Positions 753 to 2,408 of a stretch of 5,127 nucleotides of DNA are shown in pieces; position 1 is the stretch's first letter, and every line of letters begins with the position of its first letter. Both the position numbers and the translations under genes were made by a program. Under the pieces are notes generated by a model. That model did no database searches, was not told where the DNA came from, and saw only the letters and a list, made by a program, of their open reading frames with translations. The stretch is from a virus (Duplodnaviria > Heunggongvirae > Uroviricota > Caudoviricetes), in the IMG/VR virus record IMGVR_UViG_2648501318_000002, positions 1-5,127 of that record; one strand, 5' to 3'.

Positions 753-857
753 AACCCCACCTCGCAGACAAAGCGGGTGTAAATTGAGGGAATACTACGA
801 AACGTAACAGACTCGGAGTCAGTGAATAACTCAGGTATTGGGTTATCAGCTAATATC

Positions 858-897
858 GAGACTCAAAAAATGGAAAAACCCGCTCGACGGCGGGTTT
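858..897 (-). terminator. Rho-independent terminator on the minus strand, upstream of the holin (tR'-like)
   Basis: Stem CCCGC/GCGGG (879..883 and 890..894) with a 6-nt loop. On the minus strand it is followed by TTTTTCCATTTTTT (revcomp of 858..878). Confidence 0.55.
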
Positions 898-1056
898 AAG
901 CTGTGTGACGAAGTAACCACTCTTAACAGCATAACCAATTTTTTACGTACGTAAACCACAAAATGATATTTGCGAGAATGCTACCGAGTATTGAAAACAC
1001 CACTACAAATACATAAGCAAATCTCAACAAATAACCAGCAAATAATTTCCAGCGTT

Positions 1057-1086
1057 ATTTTTAGCCGATTTAAATTGAACCTTCAA
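1057..1086 (-). promoter_or_regulatory. Candidate sigma70 late promoter (pR'-like) reading toward the holin
   Basis: Minus strand reads TTGAAG, a 17-nt spacer, then TAAAAA(T). The predicted start is about 190 nt upstream of the 858..897 terminator. Pattern match only. Confidence 0.2.
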
Positions 1087-1214
1087 ATTACAGAGCACTT
1101 ATAAATAACAGCCGTTAATATAAATTGGCTAATAGATTTATTTTTATTCAGCCAAGAGCCATGAATAGGATTCGATAGAAAAAAGTTCAGATAAAAATAG
1201 AGATCTACTTCACA

Positions 1215-1310
1215 AATCAAACGAGAAACCAAAACTTACATCTTGAAATAATCACATTGATTAGATGAATATTTATCGCGCAGTGACATCATTTTTTAAT
1301 AATAGTTCAA
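1215..1310 (+). promoter_or_regulatory. Porin promoter and leader region, with an OmpR-box-like element
   Basis: Very AT-rich. TTGAAA at 1243..1248 is a candidate -35. ACTTACATCTTGAAATAATCA (1232..1254) resembles the ompC C1 OmpR site as I recall it (TTTACATTTTGAAACATCTA). AAGGG lies 8 nt before the porin ATG. The -10 element is ambiguous. Confidence 0.3.
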
Positions 1311-1325
1311 AAAAAAGGGCTCACG

Positions 1326-2408
1326 ATGAAAAAATTAACAGTGGCAATTTCTGCTGTAGCTGCATCAGTACTGATGGCGATGTCTGCTCAGGCAGCTGAA
1401 ATTTATAATAAAGACAGTAACAAGCTGGATCTATATGGGAAAGTTAATGCCAAGCACTACTTCTCCTCTAATGATGCAGATGATGGTGATACTACTTATG
1501 CCCGTCTTGGCTTCAAAGGTGAAACCCAAATCAACGATCAACTGACTGGTTTCGGTCAGTGGGAATATGAATTCAAAGGCAACCGCGCTGAATCTCAAGG
1601 CTCCTCCAAAGACAAAACCCGTCTTGCATTTGCAGGCCTGAAATTCGGGGACTACGGCTCAATCGATTACGGCCGTAACTACGGTGTAGCATATGACATC
1701 GGTGCGTGGACTGACGTTCTGCCAGAATTCGGTGGCGATACCTGGACCCAAACAGATGTGTTCATGACTGGTCGCACCACTGGTGTTGCAACTTATCGTA
1801 ACAACGACTTCTTTGGTCTGGTTGATGGTCTGAACTTTGCTGCTCAGTATCAGGGTAAAAATGACCGCACTGACGTAACTGAAGCTAATGGTGATGGTTT
1901 CGGTTTCTCCACTACTTATGAGTATGAAGGATTCGGTGTAGGTGCAACCTATGCTAAATCTGACCGCACTAATAATCAGGTTATCTACGGTAACAACAGC
2001 CTGAATGCATCTGGTCAAAATGCTGAAGTATGGGCAGCTGGTCTGAAATATGATGCGAACAACATCTATCTGGCTACCACCTATTCTGAAACCCAGAACA
2101 TGACTGTTTTTGGTAATAACCATATTGCCAACAAAGCACAAAACTTCGAAGTAGTTGCACAATATCAGTTCGACTTCGGTCTGCGTCCGTCCGTTGCTTA
2201 CCTGCAATCTAAAGGAAAAGACTTGGGTGCGTGGGGTGATCAGGACCTGGTTGAATATATTGATGTAGGTGCAACCTATTACTTCAACAAAAATATGTCC
2301 ACTTTTGTTGATTACAAAATCAACCTGATTGATAAGAGCGATTTCACGAAAGCATCTGGCGTTGCTACCGATGATATCGTTGCTGTAGGTATGGTTTACC
2401 AGTTCTAA
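1326..2408 (+). CDS. nmpC: Prophage-encoded general outer membrane porin, OmpC/OmpF superfamily (NmpC/Lc/OmpD type), apparently intact
   Basis: 360-aa ORF with a signal peptide ([25 protein letters not shown]), Gly/Tyr-rich alternating beta-strand pattern and the porin C-terminal motif VGMVYQF ending in Phe. It lies between Q and the holin on the opposite strand, as in DLP12 and PA-2. Confidence 0.9.

Follow-up and report, generated by a model that had tools for sequence, protein, structure and literature searches.

Does the porin gene carried on a 5,127-nucleotide stretch of tailed-phage DNA belong to the late transcription unit of the phage, or is it a separate cassette with which a lysogen could alter its own outer membrane? 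The stretch, which we call the window, is the whole of the DNA analyzed here (IMG/VR record IMGVR_UViG_2648501318_000002, positions 1 to 5,127; Caudoviricetes), and it is 100% identical to part of the chromosome of Escherichia coli CV839-06, an isolate from a diarrhoeic piglet. An original prediction, made from the letters of the sequence, had described positions 753-2408 as an intact porin moron inside the phage late region; position 753 is the base after the start codon of the holin gene, and 753-1325 is the holin-porin intergenic region. We favor, with a probability of roughly 85%, the reading that the window carries an intact NmpC/Lc-type moron lying between the antiterminator gene Q and the late promoter pR', that this moron has its own promoter region and terminator, and that its porin, together with the small RNA IpeX encoded in its 3′ untranslated region (3′ UTR), would replace host porins.

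In a six-frame list of open reading frames (ORFs), the porin gene was the sole long plus-strand ORF, with a coding capacity of 360 amino acids and a position between Q and the holin gene. The protein matched the Pfam family PF00267 (Porin_1) over the full length of the profile (E = 3.1e-153, positions 1-337 of 337) and PHROG 410 over 360 of 360 positions. End-to-end matches were also observed with the PDB porins OmpK37, OmpC, PhoE, and OmpF (E = 1e-120 to 1e-137). Residues 1-23 (positions 1326-1394) are identical to the annotated signal peptide of the lc gene of phage PA-2; cleavage is predicted after AQA, and export would be via Sec. The protein ends in VYQF, and so the complete OmpC/OmpF-family porin with a signal peptide and a C-terminal phenylalanine that the original prediction had described is indeed present.

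An alignment for loop L3 and the constriction residues had been proposed as a check, and we made it with Lc, NmpC, OmpF, OmpC, and PhoE. The loop 3 motif PEFGG is kept at residues 133-137 (positions 1722-1736), and the residues that form the constriction of OmpF (K16, R42, R82, R132, D113, and E117) are all kept as well; the position of the PhoE anion-selectivity lysine, K125, is occupied by a glycine. Given 62-65% identity to the solved porins OmpF, OmpC, and PhoE, the window porin is predicted to be a trimeric, 16-strand general-diffusion β-barrel with an OmpF/OmpC-like constriction. At the position of OmpF R82, the PA-2 sequence of 1986 has a histidine (KTHLAF), and the window, K-12 NmpC, and all the reference porins have an arginine (KTRLAF); the histidine may reflect an error in the early sequencing, or it may be a true variant.

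The closest characterized relatives are Lc of phage PA-2 (GenBank J02580) and NmpC of the K-12 prophage DLP12 (qsr'), and the window carries the NmpC/Lc porin gene as an intact allele. Protein identity is 91.4% to PA-2 Lc and likewise 91.4% to a reconstructed K-12 NmpC, and both genes occupy the same slot between Q and S in the same orientation as the window porin. The signal peptide is the same, the first ~170 residues are nearly identical, and the similarity extends to the 5′ regulatory region (96-100% identical) and to the 3′ UTR (96-98% identical). The differences are in length (365 amino acids in Lc/NmpC, 360 in the window) and in the surface loops L4, L5, L6, and L8, which are of another allele. 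They also include IS5, which interrupts nmpC of K-12 and the porin gene of phage 434B ("after codon 346") and is absent from the window. As the original prediction had stated, the K-12 equivalent is split, being annotated as two fragments around IS5B; the blastn match to K-12 breaks at window positions 2350/2367, and the window reads continuously across this site.

We then delimited the cassette by the loss of homology in relatives without the porin. Phages with the same holin lose their similarity to the window at position 768, and phages that share only a related Q lose it at position 2621. These losses, taken with a comparison to 933W, put the junctions near 768-956 and at 2621. The moron is thus a ~1.66-kb cassette (~957-2620) found in lambdoid phages whose Q is of the 933W/DLP12 type, and its defined junctions, together with the Q-porin-holin context, uphold the description of the gene as an intact moron of a lambdoid prophage. 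The GC content of the cassette is 0.40, compared with 0.50 in the neighboring early genes, and the AT-rich 5′ flank noticed earlier is real: GC is 0.28-0.34 over positions 900-1300 and 0.30 over 957-1325, the upstream part of the cassette.

The position of the late promoter decides how the cassette relates to late transcription. A 101-nt minus-strand probe (965-865) matched 363 phage records, and in phage 933W the matched stretch bears the annotations of pR', qut, and the first terminator. Within it, a block of ~82 nt (956-874, minus strand) is 77-78% identical to pR'/qut/tR' of 933W; both phages have the -35 hexamer TTTACG, and the -10 hexamer is TATCAT in 933W (N16) and TATGCT in the window. 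The Q protein shares 78% identity with Q933W as far as ...RLEMD, after which the two diverge; the last ~7 codons (IVVNNSN) differ from those of 933W Q and, judging from the sequence, appear to have come in with the porin cassette. The 3′ end of the 933W Q gene is overlapped by pR', and the tRNA and stx cargo of 933W follows pR' on the strand of that promoter; in the window, by contrast, the porin cargo separates Q from pR', is encoded on the other strand, and replaces the C-terminal tail of Q. Shigella phage SfIV, whose Q is 52% identical to that of the window, has an unrelated holin that is preceded by a near-identical qut/terminator block of 54 nt. The pR'/qut/tR' block seems to be in wide use as a late-control module for the Q family of the window. 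Against the solved structures of Q21 we found a match at E = 7e-7; because this match is only distant, promoter data from phage 21 are not transferable to the window.

Since pR', qut, and tR' are found at 955-871 on the minus strand, in the porin-holin spacer, the porin is upstream of and divergent from the late unit, and late transcripts run away from it. As judged from these homologies, the cassette is inserted between Q and the predicted pR'/qut of Q itself, and the porin is convergent with Q. The earlier placement of the gene "inside the late region" therefore holds for its position but not for its transcription, the cassette being placed outside the late transcript; the claim that the porin is on the strand opposite to the phage genes agrees with the orientation of Q, the holin gene essD, and the lysozyme gene rrrD. 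In SfIV, we observed a 356-amino-acid opposite-strand gene, gp49, in the same Q-pR' slot as the porin (2485-3555 of the compared SfIV sequence). No Pfam match was found for gp49, so by that test it is not a porin, and it may be a different cargo gene at the same insertion site.

Upstream of the porin, a diverged homologue from E. albertii keeps only three islands of the window sequence: 1199-1214, which is a CRP-like site, TTGAAA (1243-1248), and ATTGATTAGATGAATATT (1256-1273). This footprint suggests a porin promoter of the form TTGAAA-N17/18-(T)GAATAT, with CRP centered near -72. A further, upstream "CRP site" is annotated in PA-2 (misc_binding feature 1067-1087) and corresponds to window positions 901-921, inside the qut/initially transcribed block; these positions are conserved probably because of Q loading rather than because of CRP.

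At its other end, the porin transcript would run into IpeX. The 188-nt spacer between the porin stop codon and Q is 96% conserved across six sequences, and window positions 2367-2980, which contain the spacer, are 98.2% identical to K-12 DLP12 by blastn. The plus strand of the 3′ UTR folds into five hairpins (ΔG -61.8 kcal/mol, z = -7.9), and ~162 nt separate the porin stop codon from the end of the T run of the terminator, against ~167 nt for IpeX. A 167-nt IpeX has been located in the porin transcript (PMC12197685), and IpeX from the Lc/NmpC transcript lowers OmpC and OmpF (PMC12197685, PMC5069750, PMC3333887, PMC8065619). In DLP12 and PA-2, as in the window, IpeX lies directly 3′ of the porin stop codon, with few substitutions between the window and K-12. 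In K-12, however, IS5 separates IpeX from the porin promoter, whereas the IpeX of the window is contiguous with an intact porin mRNA. The K-12 RefSeq record does not list an ipeX feature in the corresponding stretch, and Rfam, searched with the complete window at E ≤ 1, returned no IpeX family; its only match was a sub-threshold Trp-leader (20.8 bits against a threshold of 41), which is accounted for by the tR' hairpin.

The IpeX region contains a segment complementary to the ompC leader of K-12, including its Shine-Dalgarno sequence. The best windowed duplex with this leader has a ΔG of -20.7 kcal/mol, the 15-bp core alone accounts for -20.3 kcal/mol, and 2 of 100 shuffled sequences performed equally well. 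Part of the segment is in a hairpin loop, and its sequence does not vary in the six-sequence alignment. The same windowed scan against the ompF leader gave no comparable signal, with 16 of 100 shuffles as good. Whole-length duplex prediction between the UTR and the ompC and ompF leaders was dropped in favor of the windowed scan, the full-length duplexes being unrealistic. The original prediction had proposed that an intact porin could serve in lysogenic conversion, changing outer-membrane permeability or phage-receptor availability; for the close homologues, whose Lc/NmpC transcript gives rise to IpeX and thereby to lowered OmpC/OmpF, this is the established view. The IpeX 3′ UTR, the documented route to altered availability of the OmpC receptor, had been overlooked.

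We propose the following working model. In the lysogen, the cassette would be transcribed from its own AT-rich, CRP-associated promoter region and would end at its own intrinsic terminator, and porin expression would be independent of Q and of phage induction. The porin would be exported and assembled as a general-diffusion porin, and the 3′ UTR of its mRNA would be processed to the ~167-nt IpeX, which would lower host OmpC and OmpF. A lysogen would in this way swap host porins for the phage porin and so alter its permeability, its surface antigen, and the availability of OmpC/OmpF as receptors for phages and colicins. Documentation of these steps comes from the near-identical DLP12 and PA-2 sequences and from NmpC of wild strains. 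The expression of NmpC/Lc in lysogens is reported to be sensitive to catabolites and to temperature; for the window copy, the evidence on this is indirect and consists of the conserved CRP-like site and of reports on homologues (PMC12890032, PMC9609314).

Several points weigh against this model. A strict σ70 consensus scan found no promoter upstream of the porin, and the proposed promoter stems from a footprint between two species. The CRP sites of PA-2 are sequence-based annotations of 1986, and our search of the window for the CRP consensus, allowing 3 mismatches, gave 23 matches where 21 were expected, which is the level of chance. The leader used in the duplex scan was that of K-12 and not that of CV839-06 itself. 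The need for Hfq is disputed, IpeX being described as Hfq independent (PMC8313858) and as Hfq requiring (PMC5069750), and its regulation is reported not to work by complementarity alone (PMC12197685). The integrity and family of the gene, the limits of the cassette, the late-promoter homology, and the identity and complementarity of the IpeX sequence are shown here, and for CV839-06 we infer the transcription start, the expression, and the phenotype.

Could the gene be a core porin of the host, such as its own chromosomal ompC, and not phage cargo at all? The Prokaryotic Genome Annotation Pipeline (PGAP) annotates it as "ompC: porin OmpC", and the protein passes the cut-off of the NCBIfam "porin OmpC" model (518 bits versus 484), which is, however, a subfamily model and not an equivalog; the equivalog cut-offs for PhoE and OmpF were not reached by the window porin. 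Its identity to K-12 OmpC is only 63.8%, the gene is flanked by Q and the holin gene inside a prophage, and it is present in the genomes of isolated phages. Moreover, the nearest relatives outside Escherichia (76-79% identical over the full length) are OmpD-like chromosomal porins of Salmonella, Citrobacter, and Enterobacter, which belong to the core genome, lack Q or holin neighbors and any phage context, and have no similarity to the window upstream or in the 3′ UTR. The genomic context refutes a core porin, and the sequences are consistent with a phage having captured an OmpD-like host porin. For this protein, "porin OmpC" (PGAP) and "unknown function" (PHROG) are both misleading labels. 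We also consider it very improbable that the porin is part of the late unit in the manner of stx in Stx phages, with pR' next to Q, late RNA passing antisense across the porin, and induction-coupled behavior. In favor of such an arrangement are the location of the gene, which has Q on one side and S on the other, and the good folding of minus-strand 2404-2540 (z = -5.3), where a hairpin followed by CUUUU is readable as tR'. But the pR'-qut-tR' homology to 933W lies downstream of the porin on the minus strand, with hexamers and terminator kept, and it accompanies a Q closely related to Q933W; the Q-proximal region showed no conservation when compared with that of SfIV. One report (PMC7918800, which cites Rueggeberg 2013 and 2015) describes the DLP12 lysis-operon promoter as cloned in a fragment just upstream of essD and as controlled by Q and RpoE. 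Late transcription would in any case be unable to express the porin, because the gene is on the opposite strand. One candidate that we considered and rejected was a pR' next to Q, over the loop of the plus-strand terminator (TTGCAA...TAATAT), with late RNA antisense to the porin; the 933W homology at 956-874 and the lack of conservation with SfIV next to Q speak against it.

An intact but quiescent gene is unlikely, though it is the main rival. The AT-rich upstream DNA would then be silenced, for example by H-NS, and the porin gene, which would give no phenotype at present, would be carried along neutrally in a prophage that is decaying. The low GC content of the 5′ flank, the failure of the scan to find a strong consensus promoter, and a published report of a "quiescent" nmpC all agree with this, and the prophage is decaying. 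The locus in CV839-06 is a ~50-kb lambdoid prophage inserted at icd, with an IS3 element in the lysozyme gene, an IS1 element beside ybcN, and internal stops annotated in the tape-measure and J genes, although these stops may be assembly errors. The prophage is probably lysis defective, because its endolysin gene is broken by IS3. The porin cassette itself is intact: conservation is 95-100% over the ORF and the flanks that regulate it, whereas neighboring phage genes have insertion sequences and stops, and this preservation in a prophage that is otherwise gaining both weakens the case for a silent copy. The same exact protein is also widespread among public contigs. Furthermore, NmpC protein was found in 89% of uropathogenic E. 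coli isolates (PMC9609314), and in strain CFT073 NmpC is thermoregulated, with RNA and protein strongly induced at 37°C relative to 23°C (PMC12890032). We therefore retain the expressed NmpC/Lc moron, with its IpeX tail, as the preferred reading.

How widely is this cassette distributed, and how does it vary? At least 1000 public contigs encode the exact porin protein, which goes there by the names "OmpD", "LC", and "OmpC", and at least 80% of the gene is present in 2503 of 5426 complete E. coli genomes (~46%), some of them with several copies; at least 80% of the whole 5-kb window is present in 1469 genomes. Thus, the earlier emphasis on an intact copy was right as to integrity, but such a copy is not unusual. 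The order Q-porin-S-R-Rz-bor is common to phages ev243, ev017, Kati, the PhiR series, and PA-2, all presumably viable, and to 434B, which has IS5. In nucleotide comparisons with K-12, PA-2, and Kati, the flanks and the first half of the gene are 95-100% identical, and positions 1837-2436 are 70-89% identical. From Lc/NmpC to the window, L4 changes from SDFDNYTEG to TDVTEA, L5 of Lc/NmpC (TDTQVNAGKVLPEVFASGK) is replaced by a different stretch of 16 residues, L6 changes from FADHFV to FGNNHI, and L7 and L8 differ too; very few changes affect the signal peptide, L1-L3, and the barrel. The loop allele of the window is also that of phages ev243 and PhiR34_1, and ev017 has a third allele.

Such variation is the usual pattern for the exposed loops of porins. 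A distinct L4-L8 allele joined to an invariant IpeX tail could also mean that phages circulate interchangeable "porin serotype" cassettes, whose loops are selected against porin-targeting phages, colicins, and antibodies; we regard this as a long shot. If it were true, a lysogen would silence its own OmpC and OmpF and display a surface chosen by the phage, and the cassette would be kept by selection even after the death of the prophage. Under the same reading, with the cassette between Q and pR' and the old "CRP site" being the qut region, the activities of the porin and of the lysis promoter might be coupled.

The features of the window are listed in Table 1. Several further observations concern the neighboring genes and the rest of the prophage. 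ORF 148-537 is the N-terminus of the lysozyme fused to codons derived from the insertion sequence. The longest Q ORF begins with a TTG at 2995 (132 amino acids), and PGAP and the homologues (K-12 QuuD and 933W Q) begin with the ATG at 2980 (127 amino acids). From rusA through ybcO and ninE to ybcN (3203-4470), genes overlap by 1-8 nt at their junctions, as where the ybcN stop meets the ninE start at 4015, which is typical of translationally coupled genes of the nin region. The AT-rich stretch 4600-4890 (GC ~0.34) contains a 49-amino-acid plus-strand ORF (4735-4884) that matches only positions 1-48 of the 125 of PHROG 18061 (unknown function); it directly adjoins the IS1 copy at 4895-5127 and may be a gene truncated there. 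Outside the window, the same prophage carries two more cargo genes for the outer membrane: iss, a bor homologue associated with serum survival (12921-13214 of its own source sequence), and a gene for an outer-membrane protein of the Ail/Lom family (7096-7695 of its own source sequence). At the far end of the prophage, a partial duplicate of icd adjoins an mcrBC-like restriction locus. The C-terminus of J has close relatives in mEp460, ev243, and Kati, and we found no receptor assignment.

Table 1. Features of the 5,127-nt window, with positions counted from its first letter
Feature	Position	Strand	Basis and details
End of IS3-family element, interrupts rrrD	1-198		Homology of other genomes lost left of 194; PGAP IS3 transposase
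Truncated lysozyme rrrD, N-terminal part	199-537	-	Pfam Phage_lysozyme, positions 3-83 of 125; PGAP "missing C-terminus"
Holin essD (S), first gene of the late/lysis operon	537-752	-	PF04971, E = 2e-35; annotated essD
Intrinsic terminator tR'	871-897	-	Hairpin 897-876, then U run; terminator scan; aligned to the 933W terminator, near-identical in SfIV
Initially transcribed/qut-equivalent segment	907-921	-	Alignment to 933W qut (equivalent ~914-907); overlaps the "CRP site" of PA-2 (1986)
Late promoter pR'	928-955	-	-35 TTTACG 955-950, 16-nt spacer, -10 TATGCT 933-928; homologous to 933W pR'
AT-rich porin regulatory region, GC 0.30	957-1325	+	96-100% conserved in PA-2 and K-12
CRP-like site AGAGATCTACTTCACA	1199-1214	+	2 mismatches to consensus; equals annotated CRP site 1363-1383 of PA-2; half-sites kept in E. 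albertii
Candidate porin promoter TTGAAA-N17/18-(T)GAATAT	1243-1272	+	Putative, from islands conserved with E. albertii
Shine-Dalgarno AAGGG	1315-1319	+	6 nt upstream of ATG; read from sequence
Porin gene (NmpC/Lc family)	1326-2408	+	Loops L4 1869-1886, L5 1971-2018, L6 2109-2126, L8 2331-2369
Porin 3′ UTR, IpeX small RNA region, five hairpins	2409-2570	+	DLP12 homology, conservation, fold, literature
15-bp hairpin, then CUUUU	2424-2456	-	Candidate terminator for transcription leaving Q
Anti-ompC segment AACCUUCUGUUAUAU	2514-2528	+	15 bp (one G-U) with ompC -21 to -7, including the Shine-Dalgarno sequence
Intrinsic terminator of porin/IpeX transcript, GGGGCGTTGCAACGCCCC then T run	2546-2570	+	Terminator scan; hairpin 2546-2563
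Antiterminator Q (QuuD type)	2597-2980	-	PF06530, E = 4e-53
ylcG	3066-3206	-	ORF list and Pfam scan
rusA	3203-3565	-	ORF list and Pfam scan
ybcO	3562-3891	-	ORF list and Pfam scan
ninE	3845-4015	-	ORF list and Pfam scan
ybcN/NinB-like	4015-4470	-	ORF list and Pfam scan
IS1 transposase fragment	4895-5116	-	ORF list and Pfam scan

Descriptions of the lc/nmpC porin, of its K-12 copy disrupted by IS5, and of the IpeX RNA go back decades, and what the window carries is a very common, textbook cassette of lysogenic conversion; all that we add is its loop allele, its IpeX tail, and the place of pR'/qut/tR'. If NmpC/Lc and IpeX are expressed in a porcine strain of the enterotoxigenic type, its porin profile would be altered, and such an altered profile would bear on antibiotic permeability, on vaccine antigens, and on sensitivity to biocontrol phages that depend on OmpC or OmpF.

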